From a virus (taxonomy: Duplodnaviria; Caudoviricetes): 64,000 nucleotides of DNA. Positions 5,353 to 59,888 of the stretch are shown here, piece by piece (the stretch's first letter is position 1; each line of letters begins with the position of its first letter). The DNA lies in the IMG/VR virus record IMGVR_UViG_3300022919_000005, positions 755-64,754 of that record; one strand, given 5' to 3'. Made by a program: the position numbers and the translations under genes. The notes below the pieces were generated by a model. It did not search any database and was not told the origin of the DNA. It saw only the letters and a program-made list of their open reading frames with translations.

Positions 5353-5369
5353 CGTCAGATCGTCTGACG
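5353..5369. repeat. 17-bp palindrome copy 1 (variant CGTCAGATCGTCTGACG)
   Basis: one mismatch to consensus; 18 nt before ATG 5388. Confidence 0.85.
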
Positions 5370-5387
5370 TTTTCAAGGAATAGACAC

Positions 5388-6131
5388 ATGACTGTTATCG
5401 CAAACGCTCGCAAGGTTGCCACTGTCAAGGCTGCGCCGCTGTTCAAGGGCAAAGGCGCTACGCTGCAGAGCACGGCGCTCGCTGGTATCGCATCGGCCGC
5501 ATATGCTGAAGGCAAGTCGCGAGCCGATGTCATCGTGACGCTTGTTGCCACGCTCGGTAAGAAGCCCACGGACGCACAGCTTGACGCGGCCAAGGTGGAG
5601 TACATTGTCGGCCGCACCGCCGTTCGCCTGCCCGATGGGCTCGGCACTGTGGCGGATCGCATCGCTTATGCGCGGGACTTGATCGCGAACTACGCCTATC
5701 CCGCGCAGGATGGCGTCAAGCCCCGCGCGCTGAAGAAGGGCCAAAAGGGCCGTCGCACCCCGGAGCAGCATAAGCTGATCCGCGCAGGTGAAAGCGCATG
5801 GTCGCTTGTGAAGGCGGACGCGGGATACAGCGACGCGGCGCCGATGAAGGCAAAGACTGCCGCCGCCGCCAAGAAGCGCGGGACCAACGCGCCGGGCACG
5901 AAGGCGCAGGCCGCGCCGGGCATCACCCATAGCGAGCTGGTCAAGCCCGATGGCGCGGCGATGACGAAGGCGGACGCGGTGGAATACATCGGCGGCATGG
6001 CTAAGACGCTGGCGATGTATTGCAAGAAGCACGCAAAGGTGACGCCTGCCGCGCTCGGCACGCTGGTCAACGCGTTCCAGCGCGACGTGCTCAAAGAGCT
6101 GGCATTGATCGAAAGCACGAAGGACGCCTAA
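5388..6131 (+). CDS. Lys/Ala-rich basic early protein
   Basis: 247-aa ORF with AAGGA RBS and its own promoter and terminator. Confidence 0.85.
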   Translation: MTVIANARKVATVKAAPLFKGKGATLQSTALAGIASAAYAEGKSRADVIVTLVATLGKKPTDAQLDAAKVEYIVGRTAVRLPDGLGTVADRIAYARDLIANYAYPAQDGVKPRALKKGQKGRRTPEQHKLIRAGESAWSLVKADAGYSDAAPMKAKTAAAAKKRGTNAPGTKAQAAPGITHSELVKPDGAAMTKADAVEYIGGMAKTLAMYCKKHAKVTPAALGTLVNAFQRDVLKELALIESTKDA

Positions 6132-6147
6132 CACACAACGCGCTACC

Positions 6148-6181
6148 AAGCCCCGCTATCTTAGGATGGCGGGGCTTTTTT
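6148..6181 (+). terminator. intrinsic terminator
   Basis: AAGCCCCGCTATC-ttag-GATGGCGGGGCTT stem followed by a T-run. Confidence 0.85.
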
Positions 6182-6228
6182 GTGCCTGCCGCAGATCGAG
6201 GGGATCAACCTGCAACGCGCTGGCTGGT

Positions 6229-6245
6229 CGTCAGATCATCTGACG
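6229..6245. repeat. 17-bp palindrome copy 2
   Basis: CGTCAGATCATCTGACG, intergenic. Confidence 0.95.
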
Positions 6246-6275
6246 GTTAAGCTGTGAACATGGCGGGGATTATGT

Positions 6276-6350
6276 CGACACAGTAGTCGCACATTAACGC
6301 GTGGCTGCATGATTTAAGCTGGCAACGACACAGTAGTTTTGATTTAACGC
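6276..6350 (+). repeat. direct repeat CGACACAGTAGT-N6-TTAACGC, two copies 50 bp apart
   Basis: copies at 6276-6300 and 6326-6350; inverted core ACTACTGTGTC at 8080-8090. Confidence 0.7.
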
Positions 6351-6843
6351 ATGCGTCGTGTTGTCAGATGATCGCGTGAGAGAACGTGTGCGCAAACGCG
6401 GATGCGTGGGGGTTAGCGTATATAAGCACTTGCTAGGCTTCAGGTCTGGCTACCAAAAATGGCTAGTAGCATCCCACAACGTGTTATTTGCTTGTTGAAA
6501 TATAACGCGTTTACAAGGGCTTGCGCGCTTTGGCCCACCTTGATGGAGAGCGATTTTCATATAGTCTAGTCAACTATCTAGAAAAGTTAAGGAATAAAGA
6601 AGATACGCACACGAGATTTTTGTCGGCAGGGCTGTAGCTCTTAAACGCCGACCCCGCTCCACACCGATACGAAATCGAGGTGCCCCATGAGAGGCTTTCT
6701 TATATTTCCACCGGATAGTTGGCTTTATCTACAACCGGGACGCTCTAGCCCGCAGAAAACCGGGCTTCCGCACTAGACTTATTTGCTAGCCGGGATTATA
6801 CCACTGCTAGCACTTAGTTGACCCTCCCACACAGCGAGACACC

Positions 6844-7668
6844 ATGTTGAGCCCCATCATCACGCTTAATCTCTGCAAGAACTACCGCGAAAACGCGTGC
6901 GGCATCACCTACAAGCAGCTGGCGGCGATCACCCGCATCCCGCTCGATCGTGTCGCCGCGCTCGAGAGTAAGAGCAAGGACAAGGCGTGCGAACCGTGGC
7001 TCGACGAGGCTGTTCTGATTGCGCAAGCGCTCGGCATGGCGACGATCGTGCCCCTGATCAGCACCCTGTCCCTGCGCGAGATCGATACCGGCTTCGACGT
7101 GCAGGACGACCTCGACGTCTGGCGCACTGGCTGCCGCCTGCCCTTGCGTTTCGGCCTGCGACTGGCGCTCCGGTTCGGCTTCGCGGACCCTATCCATCTG
7201 GTCCCACCCCAGCCTGTCTATCGCGAGATATGGCGCATCGCCGGCGAGGAGCGGAACAACGCGTGCCCTTGGTGTAAGGCGCCCATTGTGGGGGAGCAGG
7301 GCCATCTTCCCACCTGCCTTCCGGCGCTGCTCTACGGCGCGCGGGATGCACCAATCTCCACCATCGGCGTCATGCCCAAGCCGCGGCGTCCGCACACCCG
7401 GCGGGAAGGATCGCGGCTGGCGCCTGGGCTCGCACCGCTGCGCGCGCGGCTCGGGCTCACGCAGGAGGAGTTCGCCAACGAGATCGGCAAGCACCCGCAA
7501 TATTACGCGCGGCTCGAGCAGCTGCGTGACCCGCTGACGCAGGACCTTGCCGAGAAGATCGGGGCGCTGTTCAAGGTGCCGCTGACCGAGGTCTATATCC
7601 CCGAAACGCTGCCGCCGGTGCCGCACAGAAACGTCAGATCATCTGACGATGTGGGAGGAGCGGCATGA
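6844..7668 (+). CDS. XRE-like transcriptional regulator with two HTH domains and a central Cys/His motif
   Basis: N-terminal GITYKQLAAITRIPLDRVAALE, C-terminal RARLGLTQEEFANEIGKHPQYYARLE, central CPWC...HLPTC. Confidence 0.75.
   Translation: MLSPIITLNLCKNYRENACGITYKQLAAITRIPLDRVAALESKSKDKACEPWLDEAVLIAQALGMATIVPLISTLSLREIDTGFDVQDDLDVWRTGCRLPLRFGLRLALRFGFADPIHLVPPQPVYREIWRIAGEERNNACPWCKAPIVGEQGHLPTCLPALLYGARDAPISTIGVMPKPRRPHTRREGSRLAPGLAPLRARLGLTQEEFANEIGKHPQYYARLEQLRDPLTQDLAEKIGALFKVPLTEVYIPETLPPVPHRNVRSSDDVGGAA
7632..7648. repeat. 17-bp palindrome copy 3
   Basis: exact; inside the 3' end of the regulator gene, 16 nt before ATG 7665. Confidence 0.95.
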
Positions 7669-7880
7669 GATCGCTGGTCGTGCCATGCGCTCTCGCCCCG
7701 AGCGACACGCTCAACATGGAAGCCGATGGCCCGGTGACCAAGGCCGGCTGCTCGCTGCTGATTACGGTAAAGGAAGAAGGATCGGAGGCGCACGTCAAGC
7801 TCACCCCCGACAGCGCGCACAAGATGTTCCGCTACCTCGCGCTCTGGCTGCACAATGGGGACCTGTCCGATGATGCGTGA
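7665..7880 (+). CDS. hypothetical protein (paralog of the next gene)
   Basis: GGAGGAG RBS, ATGA overlap. Confidence 0.75.
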   Translation: MRSLVVPCALAPSDTLNMEADGPVTKAGCSLLITVKEEGSEAHVKLTPDSAHKMFRYLALWLHNGDLSDDA

Positions 7881-8076
7881 CCTGACCATATTCTGCGCGC
7901 AGGAGCCCGACGATGTGCTGCGCGCCAAGGTGAAGCCGGGGATAAGCGGGCCCGAGGTCGTCATCAACTTCGACAGCGTGAGCGATGGCGCACCCACCCC
8001 GGCGATGATCGCACTCGACAAGCAGCGCGCTCGCGAGCTGTTCAACTGGCTCGGCATCTGGCTGCACAAATACTAG
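7870..8076 (+). CDS. hypothetical protein (paralog of the previous gene)
   Basis: MMRDLTIFCAQEPDDVL...LFNWLGIWLHKY. Confidence 0.75.
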   Translation: MMRDLTIFCAQEPDDVLRAKVKPGISGPEVVINFDSVSDGAPTPAMIALDKQRARELFNWLGIWLHKY

Positions 8077-8131
8077 CGCACTACTGTGTCTTTTGTCGTG
8101 CCATGTCAGGGGCTTAGGAGGCGCCCAGCCC

Positions 8132-8159
8132 TTGACTTTGGCCAAAATAAGCCTATTCT
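8132..8159 (+). promoter_or_regulatory. sigma70-like promoter with TTGGCCAA box
   Basis: TTGACT TTGGCCAA ... TATTCT, 16-nt spacer. Confidence 0.7.
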
Positions 8160-8205
8160 AAGAATTGCCGAAGGGGCTATTGCGCCTTCCGAATATCAGC
8201 CAAAA

Positions 8206-8222
8206 CGTCAGATCATCTGACG
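8206..8222. repeat. 17-bp palindrome copy 4
   Basis: exact; 19 nt before ATG 8242. Confidence 0.95.
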
Positions 8223-8241
8223 GTCATCAAAGGATCAGATC

Positions 8242-8484
8242 ATGGCCCTTCACCCTGTGCTCACCGCCGCCGACCAAGCCCGCATGTCCCCCAGCGAGCT
8301 GCTCCACTTCACCGACACGCCGGTCGCCCACATCGCCGCCTTCCGCGACTTCGAGCTGGACGCCATGCGGGAGCGCCGCCGCCGCCGCGATGCGCAGGAG
8401 ATGGCCGAGCGCCGCCGCAACCGCGAGATCGCCAACTTCTTCCGCGCCGCCGCCGACGCGGTGCTCACGATGGAGGCTTGCTGA
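8242..8484 (+). CDS. hypothetical protein
   Basis: AAGGA RBS, phage-like codon usage. Confidence 0.7.
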   Translation: MALHPVLTAADQARMSPSELLHFTDTPVAHIAAFRDFELDAMRERRRRRDAQEMAERRRNREIANFFRAAADAVLTMEAC

Positions 8485-8485
8485 C

Positions 8486-8743
8486 ATGCGCATTGCAAGC
8501 CCAATGGAGTCGGCGCAGCTGAAGCTGACCGAGCGCGCTATTGTCCTCGCACTGCGCGGCGCCACCAAAGAGTTCGACATCCACGAGCACGCGATCCGCC
8601 ATCTGGTAGAGCTGATCGACGCCCCCGACGCCGCCGCCATCGAGGCGATCGTGATCGGCTTCGCCACCGATCTGGTGGAGGCGCGGGCGGATGCGTCCCG
8701 GCTGATGCGTGCGCAGCTGCCGGACAAGATCACGGCGGATTAA
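8486..8743 (+). CDS. hypothetical protein
   Basis: GGAGG RBS; MRIASPMESAQLKL... Confidence 0.65.
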   Translation: MRIASPMESAQLKLTERAIVLALRGATKEFDIHEHAIRHLVELIDAPDAAAIEAIVIGFATDLVEARADASRLMRAQLPDKITAD

Positions 8744-8783
8744 CCGTTCGGTAACCATCAACGCATTAGCAGGAGTTATGGGC

Positions 8784-8963
8784 ATGCCCGTATCCGACCT
8801 GATCCGGCTCGGCTCTGCCAAGCTGACGCCCCAGCAGATTGCCGACATGGCGCTGCAGGAGGACCAAGCGGCGCGTGCCCTCGCGCGCTACCGCACCGAC
8901 CACCCCGCCATCGCCGCCCACTGGGCCGAGCGCGACGCGCTGTGCAAGCTGCTCAATCCCTAA
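8784..8963 (+). CDS. hypothetical protein
   Basis: AGGAG RBS; MPVSDLIRLG... Confidence 0.6.
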   Translation: MPVSDLIRLGSAKLTPQQIADMALQEDQAARALARYRTDHPAIAAHWAERDALCKLLNP

Positions 8964-8964
8964 A

Positions 8965-8981
8965 CGTCAGATCATCTGACG
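8965..8981. repeat. 17-bp palindrome copy 5
   Basis: exact; between a stop codon and the RBS of 9004. Confidence 0.95.
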
Positions 8982-9003
8982 GTCATCAACGAAGGAAACT
9001 ACG

Positions 9004-9471
9004 ATGCCGATCGACCTCACCAAACACACCGCCGACTGCCGAGCCATCACCGACGACGACGTCATGAGCGCGACGCGCGGCCTGCAGATGACGCGCCTGC
9101 GCACCTATCAGCTCGAGGAGCTGGTTCACGTCCACGCCAAGATCGACCTGTTCGCCAGCGCGGTCATCGTCGCCGCCGCGGCGAGCCGCCTGATGCTCAC
9201 CGGCGCGTTCGACGACGAGCAGTTCAGCACCGAGGAGCTGTGGGCCATGAAGCGCGCGCCCAGCGAGCTGTTCAACCGGCTGCTCGACAGCCTCCTGATG
9301 GAGCGCATGAGCGCCAGCTGGTACGAGGCGCTCGCGGGCGCCGCGCTGCTCCCCAGGCTCGACATCGACACGATCACCTATCCGTCGCTGGACGCATGGC
9401 GCGCTGTTGGCGACGTCATGCGCGGCGTGGTCGACGGCGTCACGATCGAGCACGTCGAACCCAAGGGCTAA
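9004..9471 (+). CDS. hypothetical protein
   Basis: GAAGGA RBS, 155 aa. Confidence 0.75.
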   Translation: MPIDLTKHTADCRAITDDDVMSATRGLQMTRLRTYQLEELVHVHAKIDLFASAVIVAAAASRLMLTGAFDDEQFSTEELWAMKRAPSELFNRLLDSLLMERMSASWYEALAGAALLPRLDIDTITYPSLDAWRAVGDVMRGVVDGVTIEHVEPKG

Positions 9472-9472
9472 C

Positions 9473-9489
9473 CGTCAGATCATCTGACG
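9473..9489. repeat. 17-bp palindrome copy 6
   Basis: exact; between a stop codon and the RBS of 9509. Confidence 0.95.
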
Positions 9490-9508
9490 ACTTGTTAGGA
9501 GATAGATC

Positions 9509-9778
9509 ATGGGCCAGCTCATGTCCCCAAACCACATGCCGATCGTCGGCCTGCTCGAAACGATCCCGGCCACCGCCCTCGTGTCCGACTGGACCCAGCA
9601 CGCAAACGGCAAGCTCGAGCCCGAATATGCCGGCGGCTCGACCGTCCACTGGGATGACCAGACGCCCGGCGTCTACACCAAGCAGATCGCGGTCGACGAG
9701 GACGGGGGCCAGTGGCTCCTGTCCGCCTGCACCTTCATCGACACGTCCGTCGATGCGCTCGAGGATGACGACTCGTGA
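9509..9778 (+). CDS. acidic hypothetical protein
   Basis: AGGAG RBS, 89 aa. Confidence 0.75.
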   Translation: MGQLMSPNHMPIVGLLETIPATALVSDWTQHANGKLEPEYAGGSTVHWDDQTPGVYTKQIAVDEDGGQWLLSACTFIDTSVDALEDDDS

Positions 9779-9888
9779 CCCGCGTGCTCGAGACCATCGC
9801 CGAGGCGGGCTACGCGCTCGCCTCCCACCCCATCCCCAGCCTGATCGTCGCGATCGTGCTGTTCGTCATCGGAGGGTCGCTGCCGTGA
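9775..9888 (+). CDS. small membrane protein (37 aa)
   Basis: GTGA overlaps at both ends; hydrophobic SLIVAIVLFVIGG. Confidence 0.5.
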   Translation: MTRVLETIAEAGYALASHPIPSLIVAIVLFVIGGSLP

Positions 9889-10058
9889 GCAAGACCAACT
9901 CGATCCGCAAACTACCGTGCCGAACGACCCCACCGCAATACGAGGTGCGCTGCCAGACCCGCGTGCTCGGCATCGCCTATCAGCGCGGCGCGCTGTTCGA
10001 GTTCAAGGGCCACGAGCTGACCAAGCGCCAGCTCCTCGCAAAGGCGCATAAGCTATGA
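9885..10058 (+). CDS. hypothetical protein (57 aa)
   Basis: GGAGG RBS, GTGA and ATGA coupling. Confidence 0.55.
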   Translation: MSKTNSIRKLPCRTTPPQYEVRCQTRVLGIAYQRGALFEFKGHELTKRQLLAKAHKL

Positions 10059-10345
10059 CCCCCATCGACTACATGACCGACGCCGACAGCTGGCTCGACA
10101 TGGACGTGGGCGATCATGCGATCGTGCTTGCCCATATCGAGAGCGCAGGTGGCGGACCCGGCGGCTCGATCATGGTCAGCTTCGCCGACTGGTCGAACCT
10201 CGTCATCCACAGCGACAACGCCGCGCTGATCTTCCCGCTGCTCAAGCAGGGGCTGGTCAGGATCAAGGTCGAGCGCACCGAGGACGGGCTTGAGGCGATC
10301 GCCGCATGGCGGGAGGGCGGGGCCCCGATCCCGCTGCGCAGCTGA
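10055..10345 (+). CDS. hypothetical protein
   Basis: translationally coupled ORF, 96 aa. Confidence 0.65.
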   Translation: MTPIDYMTDADSWLDMDVGDHAIVLAHIESAGGGPGGSIMVSFADWSNLVIHSDNAALIFPLLKQGLVRIKVERTEDGLEAIAAWREGGAPIPLRS

Positions 10346-10701
10346 TGGCGCGCGCGTCCTCGACCGAGGCGATCGTCTACCGCGAGAGTGAGCGCAAGCT
10401 CAAGGCCGCGCTGAAAGCCGCGCTGCTCGCGGTGCCGGTCGGCGAGATGTTCCTGCTCGTGTTCGACGCAGCCGGCAATTCATCGGTCTGCCTGTACGAG
10501 AGGATCGACGCCGCGCGCGTGGTGTGCCTCGTGACCAACAACGGCGTGGTGCATCCGAAGGGCGTCAAGGACGGCTACGAGATCAAGAAAGCGCCGTTCG
10601 TCTCCGATGCTCGGATCATCCAGCTCGGTCAGCGCGAGACCGCCCGCCGCCACATGCTTGTCGTGCATGGGCTGGGCGTGCGCGCGATCGCGCTGCCCTA
10701 A
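10345..10701 (+). CDS. hypothetical protein
   Basis: TGATG coupling; MARASSTEAIVY... Confidence 0.65.
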   Translation: MARASSTEAIVYRESERKLKAALKAALLAVPVGEMFLLVFDAAGNSSVCLYERIDAARVVCLVTNNGVVHPKGVKDGYEIKKAPFVSDARIIQLGQRETARRHMLVVHGLGVRAIALP

Positions 10702-10702
10702 C

Positions 10703-10719
10703 CGTCAGATCATCTGACG
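10703..10719. repeat. 17-bp palindrome copy 7
   Basis: exact; intergenic. Confidence 0.95.
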
Positions 10720-10740
10720 ACTAGCTATGGGATAACTACG

Positions 10741-11277
10741 ATGCCGATGTTTGGACCTATCCGCACCCAGGCGGACCTCACCCGCCTGATCCCCCGGCAC
10801 ATGCGCGCAAGCGTCGATGCCGGCGGGGCGCCAGCCTACCGCGTCACGGCGCCGGATTACGACCGCCTGCTGGTCGACACGTTCCTCGTCGAGACGGTCA
10901 TGGGCACCGGCGGGCGCGTGCCGCAGCTGCTGGGCCGGATCGTCTCGCCGAACGACCCCTCCGCCTATCCGCGCGCCAAGCTCACCAAGGAAGGCCGGCT
11001 GGTCTACGTGTGCTGGGCTGGTGGCGATACCACCGGCTACGCGGTCAGGATGCTCGCCGAGCCCACCGCGACCGTCTACCGGCATGTGATCCTGCCCAGC
11101 GATCCCCGGCACGCGATGGTCGCCGCGTTCAAGCTCGCCTGCGACATGCGCCGCGCATGGCAGGGTGGGAAGTGCAAGATGTCTGACGCGGTGCTGGTCA
11201 AGGCGCTCGGCGTCGAGCCCTTCGGCAACGCCCCGGAGGTGCTCGACATGGGGGACATGGCCGACCTCGAACCTTGA
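10741..11277 (+). CDS. hypothetical protein
   Basis: 178-aa ORF, phage-like codon usage. Confidence 0.7.
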   Translation: MPMFGPIRTQADLTRLIPRHMRASVDAGGAPAYRVTAPDYDRLLVDTFLVETVMGTGGRVPQLLGRIVSPNDPSAYPRAKLTKEGRLVYVCWAGGDTTGYAVRMLAEPTATVYRHVILPSDPRHAMVAAFKLACDMRRAWQGGKCKMSDAVLVKALGVEPFGNAPEVLDMGDMADLEP

Positions 11278-11302
11278 CTTTGGCCAAATAACAAGCTATA
11301 AC
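11274..11302 (+). promoter_or_regulatory. sigma70-like promoter with TTGGCCAA box
   Basis: TTGACT TTGGCCAA ... TATAAC, 17-nt spacer. Confidence 0.75.
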
Positions 11303-11341
11303 TTGTTACAGGATAAGAGATCAACCCGATAGGAGCCCGAC

Positions 11342-12244
11342 ATGGCCGATCGAACCATCAAGCCCACCAGCCTCGATTACAACTGCACGCACGGCGACTA
11401 CCGTGCCGTCTGGGGCGACGTCCGCATCCGCGCCGTGCAGGACGGTGACGTCGGCAACCCCTTCGAGGAGGAGGACGGCCACTGGCCGATAAGCGTCAGA
11501 TCATCTGACGGTTTCACGGATTACGACGCCGACGGGCAGACCAGCGAGACGCGCAACCCGCTCAACCGCTTCGGCGACGCGCTGCTAGTGCATCTGCAGG
11601 TCAACATCGCCAAGATACTGGGCACCACCGTCAAGGCAATGATGACGGATTACGAGCACACCATCGACGCCGAGCCGGTCGCATATCACCGCGACGGCAA
11701 CGACCTGCGGGTGGTGATCGAGAACGAGCTAAGTGAGGTCCGCGACAGCGAGCTGTTCGACAAGTTGGTCGAGCTTTACGAGCTGCTCGGCATCCCCGCC
11801 TATGCCAAGACGGTGCGCGGCAACTGCCAGGGCGACTGGGCCGAGGTGCTGGTCGTCGCGCCGCCCGAGATCGTCGAGAAGTTCGGCATCGACCTGATCA
11901 AGCTGCAGATGGACGCCAAGGCCGCGCTCACCATGCCCGAGCTGGGCAGCGACGATCTGCCGGCCGCGATCGCCAAGCGTGTCAACGCGCAGTGGGATGA
12001 ATGGCTCGGCGACACCGCCGACCTGTACGGACATTGGGCGTGGGGCGAGTGCTACGGCTATGTGATCGACCGGATCGAGGTCGACGAGGACGGCGACGAG
12101 ATCGATGCCCACGAGTGCGAGACGCTCGGCTCGTGCTGGGGCTATTACGGCTCGGACCATGACAAGTCCGGCCTGCTCGAGAGCGCGCTCGCCGAGGCCG
12201 AGAGGTTCGTGACCGAGCCCGCCCCTGTGATGGAGGACGCATAA
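11342..12244 (+). CDS. acidic hypothetical protein with WGECYGY...SCWGYYG motif
   Basis: AGGAG RBS; 300 aa, very Asp/Glu-rich. Confidence 0.8.
   Translation: MADRTIKPTSLDYNCTHGDYRAVWGDVRIRAVQDGDVGNPFEEEDGHWPISVRSSDGFTDYDADGQTSETRNPLNRFGDALLVHLQVNIAKILGTTVKAMMTDYEHTIDAEPVAYHRDGNDLRVVIENELSEVRDSELFDKLVELYELLGIPAYAKTVRGNCQGDWAEVLVVAPPEIVEKFGIDLIKLQMDAKAALTMPELGSDDLPAAIAKRVNAQWDEWLGDTADLYGHWAWGECYGYVIDRIEVDEDGDEIDAHECETLGSCWGYYGSDHDKSGLLESALAEAERFVTEPAPVMEDA
11494..11510. repeat. 17-bp palindrome copy 8 (inside a CDS)
   Basis: exact; reads as VRSSDG in frame. Confidence 0.95.
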
Positions 12245-12627
12245 TGGCTGATCCTGTCTCGGTCGCCGCGTTCGACCTCGCCTTCGCCGCCATGTGCATT
12301 ATCGAGGAGATCGTCGCGCCGGCGAACGACGGCGCCGGCGAGCCGTGGGATGCGTACCGCCAGCGCGTCGGCATCAACGAGGTGCGCGGGACCGTCATCA
12401 ACTGCCTCGCCGCCGATTGCGACAAGGCATGGACGCGCACCAACAGGCTGTACGAGGAGGCATACGAGCGATACCAGATCGCCAAGGCCGAGAGCGGTGA
12501 CGGCACCACCACGGTGCCTGCGCCCAATGACCCCGGATCGTTCGATTACGAGTTCGTGCCCTTCTGGCTGCGCAACGCGGTCGACTGGTCCGATACCGAG
12601 ACCGGGCCGCGGGTGCGGGGGTCATGA
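12244..12627 (+). CDS. hypothetical protein
   Basis: GGAGG RBS, TAATG coupling. Confidence 0.7.
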   Translation: MADPVSVAAFDLAFAAMCIIEEIVAPANDGAGEPWDAYRQRVGINEVRGTVINCLAADCDKAWTRTNRLYEEAYERYQIAKAESGDGTTTVPAPNDPGSFDYEFVPFWLRNAVDWSDTETGPRVRGS

Positions 12628-12959
12628 GCGCGCCGACTACCGTGCCGATCGAAAAGGTCCGGCAGCTCGCCGACAGCTATTACGAGCTGATGGTGCTCAA
12701 CGACCAGAAGGCAGGCACGATGGCCCAGATGATCCGCGGGTGCATCCAAGCGCTCACCCAGGACACCAACGAGGCGGCGCGCGCACTCGAGCGGGAGCGC
12801 CGGCATCTGAAGGGCTACAAGGCGATCGTGCGCATGCACGAGCCGGCCAAGAAGGTGCGCGAGGATCGCGAGCGCGCCTTCCTCTACCTGCAGTGGCTCG
12901 CCACGCAGCTCGAAAACCAAAGCGTCAGATCATCTGACGGTATCAGCACGAAGGAATAG
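12624..12959 (+). CDS. coiled-coil hypothetical protein
   Basis: ATGA coupling, 111 aa. Confidence 0.7.
   Translation: MSAPTTVPIEKVRQLADSYYELMVLNDQKAGTMAQMIRGCIQALTQDTNEAARALERERRHLKGYKAIVRMHEPAKKVREDRERAFLYLQWLATQLENQSVRSSDGISTKE
12923..12939. repeat. 17-bp palindrome copy 9
   Basis: exact; 23 nt before ATG 12963. Confidence 0.95.
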
Positions 12960-12962
12960 GCC

Positions 12963-13889: not shown

Positions 13890-14215
13890 CCGAGGGACCG
13901 CGCACCGTCACCACCGGGCTCAAGGCCGGCGACGTCGTCGCGGTCGCCCAGCTGCTCACCCCGCGCGACGGTGGGAACGATTATTGGTGGCGCACCTTCC
14001 GGGTCGTCACCAAGGTTCATTCCAGCCGGTTCGCGGCGCTGCTGATCCTCAAGCTGCACCCCGACATGGACAAGGACCTGCGGCTGGTCGACTTTGGTGA
14101 GAACCCGTCCAAGATGGTCATCACCCAGCTCCCCGAGCCCTTCCCGCAGGGCGTCGCGGCGCTCTACATGAAGGCGCTCCACAAGGGCTGGTTCAAACCC
14201 GGCGAGGACGCCTGA
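13886..14215 (+). CDS. hypothetical protein
   Basis: GGAG RBS, ATGA coupling. Confidence 0.7.
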   Translation: MTEGPRTVTTGLKAGDVVAVAQLLTPRDGGNDYWWRTFRVVTKVHSSRFAALLILKLHPDMDKDLRLVDFGENPSKMVITQLPEPFPQGVAALYMKALHKGWFKPGEDA

Positions 14216-14218
14216 CCC

Positions 14219-14247
14219 TTGACTTTGGCCAACTTCTGGCCTAGATT
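14219..14247 (+). promoter_or_regulatory. sigma70-like promoter with TTGGCCAA box, upstream of the AAA+/vWA operon
   Basis: TTGACT TTGGCCAA ... TAGATT, 17-nt spacer. Confidence 0.75.
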
Positions 14248-14292
14248 GTAACAATCAACAGCACGTTATGCTTTGATCTCTCCCACCCCAAG

Positions 14293-14309
14293 CGTCAGAT
14301 CATCTGACG
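14293..14309. repeat. 17-bp palindrome copy 10
   Basis: exact; 22 nt before ATG 14332. Confidence 0.95.
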
Positions 14310-14331
14310 GTTATCAATGAAGGAATATCCC

Positions 14332-15404: not shown

Positions 15405-15421
15405 CGTCAGATCATCTGACG
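15405..15421. repeat. 17-bp palindrome copy 11
   Basis: exact; 20 nt before ATG 15442. Confidence 0.95.
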
Positions 15422-15441
15422 ACTAGCTATAGGACATCGCC

Positions 15442-18426: not shown

Positions 18427-18749
18427 TGGCGACCTATACGATCACCGCGATCGGTCCCAACCGGACGTTCGCATGCAAGGTGGCGGGAGCCCCGAACGAC
18501 AGCCGGATCGCCAACTTCGCAGAGGCGAAGCACTGCCCGCTGGCGACGCGCTATTTCCCGAGCAAGAAGGGCTGGGTGCTGTTCGACCTGCGCACTGCGG
18601 TCAAGGTGAACATGGGCGTGCGCGGCCGGAACGTCGCCGTCTGGAAGGGCATCAAGCGCCACCCCAAACTGTTCACTACCGAGGACGCCGCGGTCATGTG
18701 GGCGATGCACAAGCTGCAGGCGAACAGTCAGCTGCCGCTTGATGGTTGA
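18423..18749 (+). CDS. array member 7
   Basis: GGAG RBS; ends KLFTTEDAAVMWAMHKLQANSQLPLDG. Confidence 0.75.
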   Translation: MMATYTITAIGPNRTFACKVAGAPNDSRIANFAEAKHCPLATRYFPSKKGWVLFDLRTAVKVNMGVRGRNVAVWKGIKRHPKLFTTEDAAVMWAMHKLQANSQLPLDG

Positions 18750-18774
18750 CCTTCGATCCATTACGTCGTAGTAT
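18746..18774 (+). promoter_or_regulatory. sigma70-like promoter
   Basis: TTGACC-17 nt-TAGTAT. Confidence 0.65.
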
Positions 18775-18803: not shown

Positions 18804-19226
18804 ATGAAGCTGTACCCCATCCCCGGAGGTCTCTGGGCCGGCACCGAGGCCGACTGGAAGAAGCAGATGAAGGCCCGCGGGCTCAACCCCAAGGACTTCG
18901 AGGCCAGTAAGACGCGCGAGGTGCCGGTCGCCAAGGCGGACCTGCTCGAGTGGCTGAACTTCTTCGCGGTCGATGTGTACCGCAACGGCGGCGCGGCCAC
19001 TACGGTGCCGGAAGCTGCCGAGCCCCCGGTCGACGTCGGCGCGCTGCGCGCCCTGCATAACCCCACGGCAGCGCAGCAGGTCGCCCAGCAGCTGCAGGAC
19101 CCCGGCGCCGACCGTGGGCCCCTCATGCTGCAGACCCTGTTCGACAACGCGCCGATCGGCGCGCAGCTGCAGCTCGCTACCGCGGCGATCGACAACGCGC
19201 TCACGCAGCTCGCGCCGCGCACCTAG
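18804..19226 (+). CDS. hypothetical protein
   Basis: GGGAG RBS; MKLYPIPGGLWAGT... Confidence 0.75.
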   Translation: MKLYPIPGGLWAGTEADWKKQMKARGLNPKDFEASKTREVPVAKADLLEWLNFFAVDVYRNGGAATTVPEAAEPPVDVGALRALHNPTAAQQVAQQLQDPGADRGPLMLQTLFDNAPIGAQLQLATAAIDNALTQLAPRT

Positions 19227-19231
19227 TCCCA

Positions 19232-19265
19232 TGTCACACTGCGCTATTGGTAGCGCAGTGTGGCA
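19232..19265 (+). other. strong intergenic hairpin without a U-tract
   Basis: TGTCACACTGCGCTA-ttgg-TAGCGCAGTGTGGCA. Confidence 0.7.
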
Positions 19266-19273
19266 CCCCAAAG

Positions 19274-19290
19274 CGTCAGATCATCTGACG
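19274..19290. repeat. 17-bp palindrome copy 12
   Basis: exact; 24 nt before ATG 19315. Confidence 0.95.
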
Positions 19291-19314
19291 GTTATCAGCA
19301 CGAAGGAAACGACA

Positions 19315-20187
19315 ATGTCCCACGCACTTATCGAACGCGCTATGGTCATGAACCTGTCGATCGGCATCTGGCAGGGCTACCGCCTCGACCGTGACGCATC
19401 GGCCAAGGTGACCACCGACGCCGGCGCCGCATCGGACGCCGCGCGCGTCAACAAGCACCTGATCCCGAAGGCGGCGCTCGCCCCGATCGTCACCGCGCAG
19501 AACGCGATCCGCGCGCACTTCTACACCAACACGCTGCCCTGGCGCGACAACGGCGATCGCCTGATGCCGCGCAAGATGTTCGAGACCTTCATCCCCAAGC
19601 ACGAGCAGCTGGTGCAGGCGTTCAAGGACGAAGTCGAGCTGTTCCTCGCCGAGAAGTACCTCGCGGCGATCGAGCAGGCCGGGTTCCGCATGGGCGCGAT
19701 GTTCAAGCGCGAGGACTATCCGCCGGCATCCGAGCTGCGCCGCAAGTTCTACGCTGACCTCGAGATCGACGCGATCACCACCGCCAACGATTTCCGGGTG
19801 CAGATCGATCAGGCCCACGTCGACAAGGTCAAGGCGGCGATGACCGCCAACGCCGAGGCGCGGCTGCAGACCGCCATGATCGATGTGTGGAAGCGCATGG
19901 CTGACGCGGTGGGCCACTTCCAGGCGAAGATGTCCGACCCCAAGGCGGTGTTCCGCGACTCGACGGTCAAGAATATCGGCGAGATGCTCGACCTGATCCC
20001 CGGCCTCAACGTGCTCGACGATCCGCAGATCGAGCAGGTGCGCGGCATGATCATGACGGCGATCGGCGGCAAGGAAGCCAAGGAAATCCGCGAGGACGCC
20101 GCGCTGCGCGGCCAGCTCGCCGGCGACGCCGCCAAGATCATGGACGTGATGGGCGGCTTCATGAAGGCATACGGGAGCAACACCTGA
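19315..20187 (+). CDS. DUF3150-like protein
   Basis: L.I..W.G...D, K.LIPK, TLPW.DNG.RL, YP...ELR.KF, LNV.DDP pattern typical of the family found with phage AAA+/vWA pairs. Confidence 0.7.
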   Translation: MSHALIERAMVMNLSIGIWQGYRLDRDASAKVTTDAGAASDAARVNKHLIPKAALAPIVTAQNAIRAHFYTNTLPWRDNGDRLMPRKMFETFIPKHEQLVQAFKDEVELFLAEKYLAAIEQAGFRMGAMFKREDYPPASELRRKFYADLEIDAITTANDFRVQIDQAHVDKVKAAMTANAEARLQTAMIDVWKRMADAVGHFQAKMSDPKAVFRDSTVKNIGEMLDLIPGLNVLDDPQIEQVRGMIMTAIGGKEAKEIREDAALRGQLAGDAAKIMDVMGGFMKAYGSNT

Positions 20188-20916: not shown

Positions 20917-21224
20917 CCATGAAGAAGCTGACGATCAAGGACGGGTACTCGGTCCCGATCATCGCGACCGGGTCGGTCTACCTGACCGTCCAGACCCACG
21001 ACGGTGAGTACGTGTTCACCGTCAACGTGCAGGTGGTCGGCGACACCCGCCAGGAGCAGGAGGAGTTCATCTGCGATGCGCGGATCAAGCTCGCCGGCTA
21101 CCTCGACATGATCAATCACTCGCTCGATCTGATCAACGAGCACGACACGATCCTCGCCGGCCAGACGCAGCTCATGACCGAGCTGTTCGGCAAGATGAAG
21201 GCGCTGCGGGAGGTGCTGCCATGA
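20913..21224 (+). CDS. hypothetical protein
   Basis: GGAG RBS, ATGA coupling. Confidence 0.65.
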   Translation: MTMKKLTIKDGYSVPIIATGSVYLTVQTHDGEYVFTVNVQVVGDTRQEQEEFICDARIKLAGYLDMINHSLDLINEHDTILAGQTQLMTELFGKMKALREVLP

Positions 21225-21625
21225 TCCGGCGTGACAACGTCGAGTACCACGAGGGGGTCGCCGCCGCTAAGGCGGGCAAGACGCTCGACCACAACAAATA
21301 TACCGCCGGCGGTGAGCGCGCCGAGCGTTGGGCGCTGGGCTGGAAAGACACGCATGATCGCAATCGGCAGATGCTCACTCTCGATACCGTGATGGGGCCG
21401 CGGGAGATCGTCGCGCCCGGCGGTTCCTTCGACAAGACTGCCACCATTGCGTGGGCACGGCTGCTCACCGAAACCCGTAACAAGGACTTTAAGCGGCAGC
21501 GCGACAAGTTCATGTGTGAGGCAAAGATCGAGGTGCTTTCGATCGTGCTCGCTAACGCGGTCGGCATGGCCAGCTTTTACTGGGTGATGACCGCGCGCGA
21601 GATTGTAGCCGAGGAGCAAGCCTGA
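21221..21625 (+). CDS. hypothetical protein
   Basis: GGAGG RBS, 134 aa. Confidence 0.65.
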   Translation: MIRRDNVEYHEGVAAAKAGKTLDHNKYTAGGERAERWALGWKDTHDRNRQMLTLDTVMGPREIVAPGGSFDKTATIAWARLLTETRNKDFKRQRDKFMCEAKIEVLSIVLANAVGMASFYWVMTAREIVAEEQA

Positions 21626-22196: not shown

Positions 22197-22273
22197 GGAA
22201 CTTGTGCGCCGAGCTGACGTTGACCAAATCCTCCACGCATGCGACTAGCTGACAACGCGTGGAGGGTTAATTG

Positions 22274-22906
22274 GTGGCAGATAGTAGCATCGCGGTCGCG
22301 AGCATTGCGGCTACCGCTGCCGTCGTCGGCGGCGGGCTCTGGACATTTTTGAGCAACTGGCTAAACATCGGCCAGTCGTCGCGTAAGGACGCTCTCACCC
22401 GCCTAGACGGTGAGGTTTCCAAATTGAGCGAGGAGCTGTCGACTTGTGAAGCCCGTCATGGAGTTCTTGAAACCCGACTGCGCGCCGTCGAGCAACGCAA
22501 CGGGTCGTATTTTGCCCTGTGGATCAAGGACCGACATCGCCGTCTTGTGTGGCTTAATGACAAGGCGTTCCTCACACTTTTCGCCCCTCTCGGCTATGCC
22601 CGCGACGAACTCGACGGAAAGACCTTCGCCGACCTACTCGATCCCGTCGCCGCGGCCGAGATCGAAAACCTAGACCGGGTCGCGCTCGCCCACCCAGGTG
22701 CGACGCAGTCGGTGCTGGTGCAGCTCCACCCTGATCTTCAGTTCATGGTCGTGATCAAGGTCGCGGCCATTGCCGAAAACGGTGACGTGCAGTACGAGGG
22801 CTGCGCGTATAGTCCTGGCGACCCCGACATTCGGGCAGCCAACGGCGTTCGGCGGCAGGTCGAGCAGCTGCGCCTGTCGGCGGACAACCTGATGCCAGGA
22901 GATTGA
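22274..22906 (+). CDS. membrane-anchored coiled-coil plus PAS-like domain protein (holin/antiholin candidate)
   Basis: GGAGGG RBS; N-terminal hydrophobic helix; WIKD..R...LN..AF....GY..DEL.GKT..DL....A......D..AL matches the PAS_4 pattern. Confidence 0.7.
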   Translation: MADSSIAVASIAATAAVVGGGLWTFLSNWLNIGQSSRKDALTRLDGEVSKLSEELSTCEARHGVLETRLRAVEQRNGSYFALWIKDRHRRLVWLNDKAFLTLFAPLGYARDELDGKTFADLLDPVAAAEIENLDRVALAHPGATQSVLVQLHPDLQFMVVIKVAAIAENGDVQYEGCAYSPGDPDIRAANGVRRQVEQLRLSADNLMPGD

Positions 22907-22907
22907 C

Positions 22908-23651
22908 ATGCCGGAACGCCAGCAGATCGCGGACGCCCTAGCAGCCAAGGCTCGGGAGGTCGCGTTCGGCGGCAAGCTCCTCGAGCCCGACGTGGTGCTG
23001 ATCGACAAGCTGGCCGACTCGCTGTTCTCCCGCTTCCCTGCCGCCGCCGCTGCGCCGCTGCCTGATGTGGGCACCGCAACGCCCAACCCGCTGCTCACCG
23101 TGCGCGCCGCCCACGAGCTGGTGCATCACGAGGCGATCGTGCGCGAGATGTATTACGACAGCGCCAAGCCGCCGGTGGCCACCTGGGCGATCGGCATCAC
23201 CGCCGCGTCGGGCCACAAGGTGCTGCAGTACAAGGACAACCCGCAGTCGATCGAGATGTGCCTGCGCATCTACATCTGGCTGCTCCGCCGGGTCTACATC
23301 CCCGAGGTGATGCGCGCGACCGCCGGCATGCACCTCACCGAGCAGCAGTTCGCCGCGCTCGTGTCGTTCCACTACAACACCGGCGCGATCCTCAAGACTG
23401 ACCTGATCAAGCTGCTGCGCGCTGGCAATCCACAGGCCGCGCGCAAGTTCTGGACTAGCCACTATCTCAACGGCGGCGACCTGCAGAGCCGGCGCGACAA
23501 GGAAGCCCGGCTGTTCTTCGACGGCGTGTGGGACGGCGACGGGCGCACCGCCACCGTGCTCGGCGTCAAGAAGCCCAGCTACACGCCTGACTGGGGATCG
23601 GCGAAGAAGGTTGACATTGCGGCCGATCTGGTGCGGGCGCTCGCGGCATGA
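22908..23651 (+). CDS. endolysin, GH24 phage lysozyme-like
   Basis: HEAIVREMYYDS...TWAIG catalytic E-D-T pattern, QFAALVSFHYNTG, L..RR.KE. Confidence 0.88.
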   Translation: MPERQQIADALAAKAREVAFGGKLLEPDVVLIDKLADSLFSRFPAAAAAPLPDVGTATPNPLLTVRAAHELVHHEAIVREMYYDSAKPPVATWAIGITAASGHKVLQYKDNPQSIEMCLRIYIWLLRRVYIPEVMRATAGMHLTEQQFAALVSFHYNTGAILKTDLIKLLRAGNPQAARKFWTSHYLNGGDLQSRRDKEARLFFDGVWDGDGRTATVLGVKKPSYTPDWGSAKKVDIAADLVRALAA

Positions 23652-24082
23652 ACGTGCTCGAGTACCTCGACCGGATCGGCGAGCGCCGCCTCGAGCGCAT
23701 GCGGATCGCGCCGCCCCGGCCGCGCGACACCCGCATGCTGCTCGGCGCGCTGTTCTTCATCGGCTATTACAGCTTGGTGATCATGATCATGAAGGGTCGG
23801 GAGCTGGCGCCCGACAACGCCACGCTGGTCAAGGACGCCATGCTGGTGCTCGGCCCCGTCGTGGGCATGATCGCCCAGGCGCTGTTCCGCACCGATGTGC
23901 GCGACGAGATCGCCACCAACAATACCGGCGCGGCGTTCCGCGCGCTGGGGGATCAGGCCAAGGCCACTGTCGCCGCGGCTGCCACCACCCCACCCGACGC
24001 GTCCGTTGCGGCTGCCGCCGCGGAAGTCGCCGATGCCGCAACCATGCGCGCCGATCAGATCAGGGACGAGGTCCAGCCATGA
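23648..24082 (+). CDS. putative holin (two TM helices)
   Basis: two hydrophobic segments; lies between endolysin and spanins. Confidence 0.6.
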   Translation: MNVLEYLDRIGERRLERMRIAPPRPRDTRMLLGALFFIGYYSLVIMIMKGRELAPDNATLVKDAMLVLGPVVGMIAQALFRTDVRDEIATNNTGAAFRALGDQAKATVAAAATTPPDASVAAAAAEVADAATMRADQIRDEVQP

Positions 24083-24462
24083 AGCTTCCCACCACCATCG
24101 CTCGCGAGACCGTGCTCAAGGTGATCTTCTGGATCGCGGTCGGCGGGCTCGTGTTCGCCCTCGTGCTCATTGCCCAGTGCTCGATGAACGCCGACGTCAA
24201 GACCCAGGCGGACGTCAACAAGGGGCAGGCCGGCGCGGCGCAGCAGACCGGCAAGGATGCGGTCGAGCAGCTCGGCACTACGATGTCGAACGAAATGGTC
24301 GCCGACACCACCACGAAGGAAAACGATGATGAAATCCGCAAGGCTGCTGGCTCTGACACTGCTGTCGCTCCCGATGCTCGCGCTGCCGGCCTGCGGGCTC
24401 TTTGTCGGCGCGCGTCCTTCGCTGCAAACAATCCCGCCTGCGTGCAGCAAGTACGTCCCTGA
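24079..24462 (+). CDS. i-spanin (Rz-like)
   Basis: N-terminal TM helix, helical periplasmic part, C-terminal Cys residues. Confidence 0.7.
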   Translation: MKLPTTIARETVLKVIFWIAVGGLVFALVLIAQCSMNADVKTQADVNKGQAGAAQQTGKDAVEQLGTTMSNEMVADTTTKENDDEIRKAAGSDTAVAPDARAAGLRALCRRASFAANNPACVQQVRP

Positions 24463-24673
24463 CAGCTGGCGGAAGGGCATCGCGTCGGCGAAGCTCGCCA
24501 ACGGTGGGCTCGAGATGGGCGACTGGATCGCGTTCAGCGACGCGCAGACCGGGCAGCTCGACAAGTCCAACGGCCGGCTCTCCGACGCTCTGTCGATCAT
24601 CGAGAAATGCGAGACGCGCGATGCGGCGGCGGTGGCCAAGGCGACACGGAAGAAAGTGTTGGGTATCTTCTGA
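24326..24673 (+). CDS. o-spanin (Rz1-like lipoprotein), overlapping the i-spanin
   Basis: signal peptide with lipobox LALPAC; +1 frame within the i-spanin gene; AAGGA RBS. Confidence 0.75.
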   Translation: MMKSARLLALTLLSLPMLALPACGLFVGARPSLQTIPPACSKYVPDSWRKGIASAKLANGGLEMGDWIAFSDAQTGQLDKSNGRLSDALSIIEKCETRDAAAVAKATRKKVLGIF

Positions 24674-24676
24674 TCG

Positions 24677-24704
24677 TTGACTTTGGCCAACTATCCTCTA
24701 GGTT
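24677..24704 (+). promoter_or_regulatory. sigma70-like promoter with TTGGCCAA box
   Basis: TTGACT TTGGCCAA ... TAGGTT, 16-nt spacer. Confidence 0.65.
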
Positions 24705-24732
24705 GGGGGCTCAACGCTAGGAGCCCCCACCG

Positions 24733-25008
24733 ATGACCATCTCCCCCTTCACCCCACGCGAGCAGCTGGTCGCGCGGATCGAGGCGCTCGAGGCGCAGCT
24801 GCGCAAGGATCGCGACCAGTTCCTGTTCTACGGCCGGAACCATCGCGCCAAGGCGGCTGCTGGGCCCGAGGGTTCGAGCGCCTTTGTCGATGTCGCCGAC
24901 ACCCTTGCCAAGGCCGAGACCAACGAGCGCATGGCGATCGACATCGCGAACCTGCTCAACGACGCGAAACCGTCAGATGATCTGACGCCCAGCGCGGACG
25001 TCAGTTGA
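24733..25008 (+). CDS. hypothetical protein
   Basis: AGGAG RBS, 91 aa. Confidence 0.7.
   Translation: MTISPFTPREQLVARIEALEAQLRKDRDQFLFYGRNHRAKAAAGPEGSSAFVDVADTLAKAETNERMAIDIANLLNDAKPSDDLTPSADVS
24971..24987. repeat. 17-bp palindrome copy 13 (opposite orientation, central G)
   Basis: CGTCAGATGATCTGACG. Confidence 0.9.
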
Positions 25009-59887: not shown

Positions 59888-59888
59888 G

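Follow-up and report, generated by a model that had tools for sequence, protein, structure and literature searches.

The window analysed here is a stretch of 64,000 nucleotides (nt) covering bases 755-64754 of IMG/VR record IMGVR_UViG_3300022919_000005, an uncultivated virus genome of 64,754 bp from a metagenome. To the left of its DNA polymerase gene lies an arm of about 45 mostly unassigned small genes (~5388 to 25700, + strand), which from its position and content is presumably an early region. The subject of this analysis is a perfect palindrome of 17 bp, CGTCAGAT-C-ATCTGACG (8+1+8 build), which is found 13 times within this arm.

The palindrome and the arm that carries it

Genes in the window are hand-picked open reading frames (ORFs), chosen by the G+C content of the third codon position (GC3) and not taken from a gene finder. 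The 13 copies are placed among them as follows.

Copy 1, 5353..5369, + strand: one mismatch (A10 to G, CGTCAGATCGTCTGACG); 18 nt before ATG 5388
Copy 2, 6229..6245, + strand: in a non-coding stretch of about 700 nt past the terminator-like hairpin at 6148-6177
Copy 3, 7632..7648, + strand: in the non-conserved C-terminal tail of the helix-turn-helix (HTH) ORF; 16 nt before ATG 7665
Copy 4, 8206..8222, + strand: 74 nt after the TTGACT of the promoter-like site 8132-8159; 19 nt before ATG 8242
Copy 5, 8965..8981, + strand: 2 nt past the stop of 8709-8963; 22 nt before ATG 9004
Copy 6, 9473..9489, + strand: 2 nt past the stop of 9004-9471; 19 nt before ATG 9509
Copy 7, 10703..10719, + strand: 2 nt past the stop of 10306-10701; 21 nt before ATG 10741
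Copy 8, 11494..11510, + strand: truly intragenic, codons ~51-57 of 11342-12244
Copy 9, 12923..12939, + strand: in the last 37 nt of ORF 12624-12959; 23 nt before ATG 12963
Copy 10, 14293..14309, + strand: 74 nt after the TTGACT of 14219-14247; 22 nt before ATG 14332 (AAA ATPase)
Copy 11, 15405..15421, + strand: 20 nt before ATG 15442 (DUF2201/VWA protein)
Copy 12, 19274..19290, + strand: 24-25 nt before ATG 19316; syntenic in the related genome G019
Copy 13, 24971..24987, - strand: within the final 38 nt of ORF 24733-25008, bordering on the replication genes

A scan allowing one mismatch returned these 13 sites, 12 of them identical over all 17 bp, while 100 dinucleotide-preserving shuffles gave a mean of 0.06 and a maximum of 1. 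All copies lie within the small-gene arm. When the whole 64,754-bp genome was scanned at three substitutions, no site beyond the 13 was found, and none in the replication or structural parts. An earlier reading made from the letters alone (the sequence-only reading) had listed 13 copies at these positions and had noticed none in the replication core or the structural arm; both statements were borne out by the scans.

On the + strand, the central base is C at 12 of the 13 sites and G at 24971. The distance to a gene was counted from the palindrome end to the next start codon that is preceded by a Shine-Dalgarno (SD) sequence and opens an ORF of at least 40 codons. At ten sites this distance is 16-24 nt (18, 16, 19, 22, 19, 21, 23, 22, 20 and 24 nt in site order). 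Behind the sites at 6229 and 11494 there is no qualifying start, and the flipped copy at 24971 has its next start 71 nt away. The claims that ten copies end 16-24 nt before a start codon and that twelve share one central base therefore hold. The further claim that four copies are kept inside coding sequence is correct in that four overlap ORFs, but only 11494 lies deep within a gene, whereas 7632, 12923 and 24971 fall within the last ~40 nt of theirs.

The symmetry extends past the 17 bp. The dyad spans about 23 bp and reads AA-n-CGTCAGAT-c-ATCTGACG-n-TT, with A at -3 in 11 and at -2 in 10 of the 13 sites, and T at +2 in 10 and at +3 in 9. The half-site alone occurs as a single extra 8-mer in 64,754 bp. 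Outside this genome, the exact 17-mer was found as 42 single hits in very diverse taxa among 596 Gb of prokaryote genomes, where simple arithmetic predicts ~35-70 hits for a random 17-mer, while metagenome contigs gave another 64 hits and viral contigs 2, again singly. It never occurs more than once per outside record in the collections searched, from which close neighbours of the window may be missing. An abundant host repeat, which the sequence-only reading had named as a finding that would refute it, is rejected on these single hits, whose number is of the order expected for any 17-mer. The 17-mer was not met in the literature searched, supplements excepted, and a term search of the accessible text of the JC1 (Bcep22-like) paper returned no mention of such repeats.

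The leaders that follow the palindromes fall into classes and share no single word: five sites are GTCATCAACGAAGGAA-like and three ACTAGCTAT-like. In this genome palindrome and leader recur together in repeat families of 37-56 nt, and a semi-conserved leader, for example ATCAACGAAGGAA, is common to this genome and G019. As a transcript, the element is predicted to fold into a 7-bp stem with a 3-nt loop (-9.2 kcal/mol), leaving the SD sequence unpaired.

Some sites merit a closer description. Copy 2 is followed by no gene within 75 nt, and its position is matched by sites in the related genomes G001 and G019. The tail of the HTH ORF that holds copy 3 is absent from the homologues of that protein. 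G001 carries its own palindrome at the intragenic place homologous to copy 8 (+168 there and +160 in 11342-12244 here). The longest ORF around copy 12 is 18973-20187, but homology to relatives begins only at residue ~111-117, and an SD sequence and an ATG are present at 19316; the site is therefore read as intergenic, and the gene listed as 18973-20187 is taken to begin in fact at ATG 19316. Directly before copy 12, a perfect 12-bp stem, CACACTGCGCTA...TAGCGCAGTGTG, without a T run lies at 19235-19262 (+ strand).

The following putative transcription signals were predicted in the arm.

5291-5319, + strand: sigma-70-like promoter, ATGACG-17-TATAAT, ahead of the first arm gene
6148-6177, + strand: strong intrinsic-terminator-like hairpin, 13 pairs and a T run, after the first gene
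8132-8159, + strand: sigma-70-like promoter of the CCTTGACTTTGGCCAA family, containing TTGACT
14219-14247, + strand: sigma-70-like promoter
18746-18774, + strand: sigma-70-like promoter

The promoter word CCTTGACTTTGGCCAA occurs in four + strand copies, starting at 8132, 11274, 14219 and 24677, and is followed after ~16 nt by a TAnnnT hexamer. Two of these copies stand exactly 74 nt ahead of one of the 17-bp palindromes. In G001, G006 and G019 the word was not found. Within the spacer lies an 8-bp palindrome, TTGGCCAA, possibly another operator. None of the 17-bp palindromes overlaps a predicted promoter; they are found either downstream of a promoter, at ~+27 to +40, or between cistrons, with copy 1 at ~+27 to +43 from the promoter-like site 5291-5319. 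Since no phage RNA polymerase was found and sigma-70-like promoters are present, the arm is likely transcribed by the host RNA polymerase.

Between the strong terminator and the HTH gene lie ~700 nt (6132-6843) of lower G+C content without a convincing ORF. Copy 2 lies in it, as do an incomplete copy (GTCAGATGATC, at 6363) and several promoter-like segments rich in AT, and the stretch is likely a control region. An 11-nt word, GACACAGTAGT, is repeated in this non-coding stretch past the first gene (6277 and 6327 on the + strand) and recurs at 8080 on the - strand. It is also present in G001, G006 and G019, and as GGCACAGTAGT in G004 and G012. Its conservation among relatives with differing palindromes suggests that its reader may be a host factor, or else the HTH protein through its conserved N-terminal domain.

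Other functions considered for the palindrome itself were rejected. A sigma-70 promoter within it, with GATCAT as -10, lacks a conserved -35 and finds no support in the relatives. Three copies were flagged as antisense terminators on the - strand, but their T runs are short, and the relatives have none. A role of Dam methylation was dropped as well: a central C or G makes a GATC, yet the centres of the relatives are free.

Outside the palindromes, the window ORFs were scanned against PHROGs and Pfam (39 + 35 proteins for Pfam), and the assigned genes are listed here.

1924-3426, - strand: large terminase, packaging genes
6844-7668, + strand: XRE-family protein, second gene of the arm
14317-15372 as listed, start taken at ATG 14332, + strand: AAA ATPase
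15442-16608, + strand: DUF2201/VWA protein
22908-23651, + strand: lysozyme
25887-27842: DNA polymerase, replication genes
32607-34265: SNF2 helicase, replication genes
36751-39864: DUF927 primase, replication genes
51786-58784, - strand: virion protein of 2332 aa, structural genes
62197-63234, - strand: major head protein, structural genes
Among the structural genes, - strand: SU10-type adaptor and GP4-type fibre

Judged from this gene layout, the virus is a podophage. The general Pfam and PHROG scans returned no integrase or ParAB family and no sign of lysogeny genes, absence of a hidden Markov model match not being proof. Rfam and tRNA scans of the window returned nothing. The ATPase and the DUF2201 (metallopeptidase-like/VWA) protein form a pair (14317-16608, + strand) that is homologous to gp24 and gp25 of coliphage N4 and is kept in 14 of 17 relatives. 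Two weak signals come from the arm proteins 21221-21625 and 22271-22906 (+ strand): a ribosome-modulation-factor-like N-terminus, at 21.9 bits and under the Pfam cut-off, and a PAS_4 fold, at 24.8 bits against a cut-off of 23.1. A search with 5300-15200 found DNA of the window in two leaf-litter metagenome DNA runs, one of which may be its source, and in no RNA run.

Palindromes and a candidate regulator in related genomes

A search of IMG/VR with the head protein found 106 related stretches among 110 candidates, and 80 loci were kept, at 67-90% identity. The nearest GenBank phage by this protein is Pseudomonas phage Rollin (44%); a megablast of 5000-16000 against GenBank phages gave zero matches, and a search for related loci with the ATPase only gave 2. 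The comparison set comprised 18 genomes: 16 assembled IMG/VR contigs, Rollin and this genome (G000). All perfect inverted repeats with arms of 6+6 and a centre of 0-5 nt were counted, with five Markov-random versions of each genome as control. In 14 of the 18 genomes, one family of perfect palindromes is present in 5-14 copies, against no more than 3 in the Markov controls. G007 has 3 copies, and G004 and G012 have no such family. Rollin has at most two perfect copies, its count in the Markov comparison being an artefact of a run of N, and five imperfect 17-nt palindromes near the record ends.

The motif scan thus returned the same 13 sites in this genome and palindromes of their own in the relatives. 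The arms found here differ from those of the relatives, and at least eight arm sequences occur in the 14 genomes.

G000 (this genome): CGTCAGAT-n-ATCTGACG
G006: GTCGGAT-n-ATCCGAC
G001: GTCAGGT-n-ACCTGAC
G019: GTCACGT-n-ACGTGAC
G005: ATTAAC-nn-GTTAAT
G003, G009, G010, G011, G013, G014 and G016: TGTTACA-nnn-TGTAACA
G008: TGCGACA-nn(n)-TGTCGCA
G007: TGTGACG-nnn-CGTCACA
G002: GGGACA-nnn-TGTCCC, plus other repeats

In the relatives the palindromes are built as 7+1+7, 7+3+7 or 6+2+6, compared with 8+1+8 in this genome. Within each genome the arms are invariant, while the centres vary: C at four, G at three and A at two sites in G001; T at five and A, G and C at three each in G019; six different triplets in G003. 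In G019 the centre tracks the leader class, as all five sites with a AGATCAACCGAAGGAA-type leader have A at the centre. The distance from palindrome to start is 13-73 nt in the TGTTACA group.

The location of the sites is conserved as well. Clear borders could be drawn in 12 genomes. Of their 106 perfect sites, 93 fall within the arm, measured from the terminase-side border gene to the polymerase, and this arm makes up 19-33% of each of those genomes. A site stands upstream of the orthologue of gene 5388 in four of four genomes, of 12963 in three of three, of the ATPase in three of three, of DUF2201 in three of three and of 19316 in two of two. Genes that have no site here are likewise without one in the relatives. 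The gene content of the arm is highly variable among the relatives, yet the sites stay.

Some arms of the relatives carry features of a different kind. The arm of G003 encodes a protein with an Acb2/Tad1-hairpin domain, an anti-defence sponge family (L096:12346-12747), and that of G002 encodes an IS1595-family transposase (L094:16695-17717). G002 also has a dense array of ~9 repeats at the start of its arm (58176-60657 and 1415-1760), made up of tandem GAACATCACC decamers, a CGCCCAAGGGCG hairpin and GAACGTGACAAAAGA words, which is a different and more complex repeat system.

The most likely candidate for a protein that binds the palindromes is the XRE-family protein encoded by 6844-7668. This protein of 274 aa has an XRE-like helical domain at its N-terminus and a C-terminal HTH_3 domain (PF01381, residues 199-249; 50.2 bits against a Pfam cut-off of 23) with a variable recognition helix. 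An N-terminal HTH signal is weak in this protein and clearer in its G019 homologue, and a C-x2-C...H...C motif is invariant in the family. The AlphaFold model has a mean predicted local distance difference test (pLDDT) score of 79.6, with confidently predicted helical domains at 1-120 and 190-255. The profile matches in the PDB are all XRE-type operator binders (PezA, C.BclI, CylR2, HipB, ClgR and lambda cI), which are dimeric. Foldseek with the predicted model agrees, the matches being XRE domains with target-side template modelling (TM) scores of 0.63-0.83 and E values of 0.024 or higher.

The family is rare, with 9 proteins, this one included, among 5.8 billion; one of the other eight is encoded on a contig of 62,552 bp. 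Homologues were looked for in the 17 other assembled genomes and in four more records and were found only in G001, G006 and G019, and a locus search with the HTH alignment returned the same 4 contigs only. The genomes that have the HTH protein are exactly those with palindromes of the form GTC-nnn-T-n-A-nnn-GAC. The core triplets of the GTC type are AGA, GGA, AGG and ACG, and the recognition helix differs in all four homologues. This co-occurrence of protein and palindrome type within one subclade is suggestive but falls short of proof. Two other arm proteins were rejected as binders: the acidic protein 11342-12244 has no DNA-binding signature, and 5388-6131 is also present in G004 and G012, which have no palindromes.

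Operators, hairpins and other readings of the sites

We give roughly even credence to the reading that the 13 palindromes are dyad operators for a dimeric regulator encoded by the phage, likely the 6844-7668 protein, which would shut off the arm by forming roadblocks. Recognition of double-stranded half-sites is favoured over a hairpin read by its structure because the arms are invariant while the centre is free. The imperfect copies point in the same direction. At 28 such sites in 14 genomes, 36 pairs are broken and none is compensated; the mispairs include 15 G·U and 12 A·C (p = 0.70), so that G·U is not in excess on the sense strand. Uncompensated breaks without a preference for G·U argue for half-site recognition, as do the G005 element, which barely folds (predicted mean of -2.7 kcal/mol vs -7.6 to -11 for the others), and the flanks that continue the dyad.

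The sequence-only reading had offered three alternatives, namely operator or roadblock sites, an RNA or single-stranded DNA hairpin, and sites used in DNA entry or protection, and had leaned towards a strand-specific role. The operator is the best supported of these, by the invariant arms, the 23-bp dyad, the palindromes of the relatives and the co-occurrence with the XRE protein. The lean towards strand specificity has been weakened on both of its grounds: the fixed centre can be any base in the closest relatives and goes with the class of leader in G019, while the fixed distance to the ribosome-binding site (RBS) widens to 13-73 nt in other subclades.

Several observations weigh against the operator reading. 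Twelve of the 13 centres share one orientation, which a symmetric operator does not require. The spacing of 16-24 nt is kept at ten of the 13 sites, even in long intergenic regions (8206, 14293, 5353 and 19274). As no palindrome overlaps the -35 or -10 hexamer of a predicted promoter, classical repression of initiation is not the mechanism, and the roadblock is assumed. The co-occurrence of the HTH protein with its palindrome type comprises four genomes of one subclade and could result from shared ancestry alone; the acidic protein 11342-12244 is distributed in the same way across the genomes. A cognate DNA-binding protein was not recognised in 10 of the 14 palindrome-bearing genomes. For the TGTTACA and ATTAAC subclades, no DNA-binding family was found, G003 having only an RHH_4 protein that is not common to the other TGTTACA-type genomes. 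G004 and G012 manage without palindromes altogether. The points on orientation and distance may have an explanation in descent. Since the centre tracks the leader class in G019 and families of 37-56 nt join palindrome and leader, both properties were probably inherited with a duplicated cassette of palindrome and leader, and not selected.

Clearly less probable is an element that acts at the RNA level, in which the transcribed copy would fold 5' of the SD sequence as part of a translation-initiation cassette. It might stabilise the 5' or 3' end of a cistron, serve as a processing site, or be the target of an RNA-binding protein that tunes translation, in line with the role proposed for the Cluster K repeats described below. 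Such a reading would account for the position of ten sites just before a start codon, for the single orientation of twelve, for the predicted hairpin of ~-9 kcal/mol that leaves the SD sequence free, for the several copies that begin 2 nt past an upstream stop codon, for the leader (ATCAACGAAGGAA) shared with G019 and for the avoidance of promoters. However, a structural hairpin does not need an identical stem sequence throughout a genome, and here it is the loops that vary and the stems that do not. The 36 broken pairs without compensation or sense-strand G·U excess, the barely stable G005 element, the start distances of 13-73 nt in the TGTTACA group and the continuing dyad of the flanks all speak against it, as do the copies at 6229, 11494 and 24971, which have no start codon behind them.

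It is unlikely, though compatible with dyad recognition, that a dimeric phage protein binds the sites without any role in transcription, in which case they would be recombination hot spots, pace the entry of DNA, or protect or compact the DNA that enters first. Promoter/stem-loop cassettes of T4-type phages have reportedly been proposed as hot spots for the shuffling of early-gene cassettes. The repetition of palindrome and leader as one cassette (the 37-56-nt families and the link of centre and leader in G019) would suit such a role, as would an arm whose gene content varies greatly while the sites remain. On the other hand, the Pfam scans of 39 + 35 proteins found no recombinase or partition gene, and the DNA-entry model found no support and cannot be anchored, as the genome ends were not located. 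That the sites are conserved ahead of the same orthologous genes is easier to reconcile with regulation than with shuffling.

It is very improbable that the sites are hairpin promoters of the coliphage N4 kind, at which a phage RNA polymerase would start. N4 has three such promoters, where DNA hairpins are extruded and the virion RNA polymerase starts; the 3-nt loop is centred at -11, the loop bases are conserved (-11 A/G, -10 G), and the non-conserved stem bases are free if paired (PMC4496689). N4 and this virus share short inverted repeats with a 3-nt loop before early genes, and both are podophages with a giant ejected protein. The predicted 7-bp stem and 3-nt loop carry a purine (G) at the loop centre of the template strand in 12 of the 13 copies, a start ~3 nt past the palindrome would give leaders of 13-21 nt with an SD sequence, and the genome has an N4-like layout with the gp24/gp25-like pair. 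The conservation is nevertheless the opposite of that in N4, as the stems are invariant here and the centres are free in the relatives. Moreover, sigma-70-like promoters are present, and no RNA polymerase family was found in the Pfam and PHROG scans of the called genes.

The 2332-aa virion protein was the candidate for such a polymerase, since it matches the PHROG 'virion RNA polymerase'. This match is confined to residues 1091-1359, around an HExxH motif (Pfam LPD39, under cut-off). BLASTP against N4 gp50 is weak, with a best E value of 0.049, and aligns residues ~984-1183 with 2194-2318 of gp50, outside the polymerase domain, which we take to be 998-2103. The sole sequence match in the PDB is an 'internal virion protein'. 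The N4 RNAPII proteins gp15 and gp16 are unmatched, and of 28 N4 proteins only gp24 and gp25 match. On the PDB, gp50 and gp15/gp16 comparisons, an N4-like virion RNA polymerase was rejected as the identity of this protein. As for its own features, the protein (51786-58784, - strand) has an Ala-rich N-terminal part of ~1000 aa, an HExxH/LPD39 region that matches the solved 'internal virion protein' (9sfn_G), and a C-terminal third that is DarB-like/PLxRFG, as in other podophages. It looks like a giant ejection protein without an RNA polymerase module.

Under the operator reading, host RNA polymerase would transcribe the arm from a handful of sigma-70-like promoters. The regulator from 6844-7668, the second gene of the arm, would be made in the process and bind the palindromes as a dimer. 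The operators would then act downstream of promoters or between cistrons, directly 5' of each RBS, and the accumulated regulator would fill all 13 sites and put roadblocks in the way of elongation into each cistron. The outcome would be a coordinated shut-off of the arm, similar in function to that of the stoperators of mycobacteriophages but with symmetric sites. We propose that palindrome and 5' leader spread together as a cassette, and hence that the copies have a common orientation and a fixed distance to the start.

Comparable repeats and their meaning

The closest published analogues are the 17-bp repeats of Cluster O, the extended start-associated sequences (ESAS) of Cluster K and the stoperators of Cluster A, all from mycobacteriophages. 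The Cluster O repeats are the nearest published case. These phages have more than 30 copies of a 17-bp repeat, 5'-TGTTCGGNNNCCGAACA, genome-wide, with invariant arms and a variable centre, for which the authors predict a dimeric DNA-binding protein and leave the function open (PMC4351075). Both systems consist of perfect 17-bp inverted repeats with arms that are invariant in each genome and a variable centre (here in the relatives), and of many copies that are mostly intergenic and partly intragenic. In both, the motif is absent from host genomes and no integrase is present. The seven relatives with TGTTACA-nnn-TGTAACA even share the 7+3+7 build. The differences are that the Cluster O copies are spread over the whole genome and not tied to starts, whereas here 13 copies occupy one arm and ten are close to a start; that 7+3+7 with a variable centre contrasts with 8+1+8 and a fixed centre in this genome; and that Cluster O phages are siphoviruses of Mycobacterium and the virus described here is a podophage, an unrelated type.

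The start-associated sequence (SAS) of Cluster K is an asymmetric 13-bp word that spans the RBS, and the ESAS are imperfect 17-bp inverted repeats with a spacer of 4-13 bp (PMC3203893). Like the sites described here, they are confined to the non-structural half of the genome, lie directly upstream of starts and have nearly all one orientation. The ESAS are also inverted repeats just 5' of the leader, with a consensus that varies by sub-lineage. In contrast, the conserved part here is a contiguous perfect palindrome, and the leader is semi-conserved in two or three classes. The function of the ESAS and of the Cluster O repeats was still open in these papers (PMC3203893; PMC4351075).

For the stoperators of Cluster A, it has been reported that binding of the repressor terminates transcription elongation. 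They are asymmetric 13-bp sites oriented with transcription, and are bound by a monomeric two-domain immunity repressor in temperate phages (PMC9283540; PMC4351075). Many identical sites in short intergenic regions, away from promoters, and a specificity that differs between related phages are common to both systems. The likeness to stoperators drawn by the sequence-only reading therefore remains useful as a functional model but does not extend to the sites themselves, which have a dyad over 17-23 bp here. Moreover, Cluster A phages are temperate, whereas the Pfam and PHROG scans found no lysogeny genes in this virus.

A further likeness is with Streptomyces phage phiC31, which has highly conserved inverted repeats (CIRs) of 17 bp in many early intergenic regions that are bound by its repressor. 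That phage is temperate and has an actinomycete host.

Dispersed, phage-specific repeats ahead of non-structural genes were thus known before from several mycobacteriophage clusters. What is new here is a contiguous, perfect, start-proximal palindrome restricted to one arm in an uncultivated podophage clade, together with a candidate regulator. The clade adds a natural set in which syntenic sites carry at least eight re-specified palindromes and, for one subclade, a named candidate regulator with four protein/site pairs in which both the 3-bp core and the recognition helix differ.

A broader scenario is put forward tentatively, and we think it doubtful as a whole: that an apparently virulent podophage clade silences its arm in the manner of stoperators, through an early regulator of an unusual two-XRE-domain/zinc type that forms roadblocks on the palindromes ahead of almost all early cistrons, with the regulator/site pair re-specified in each lineage so that immunity-like specificity groups arise. 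If this were true, the specificities of the lineages may serve competition between phages, with a resident or co-infecting phage silencing the arm of an incoming phage of the same specificity. If the roadblock is real, silencing of the stoperator type would reach beyond temperate actinophages into a lytic-looking podophage lineage, and the clade would provide a compact orthogonal set of repressor/operator pairs.

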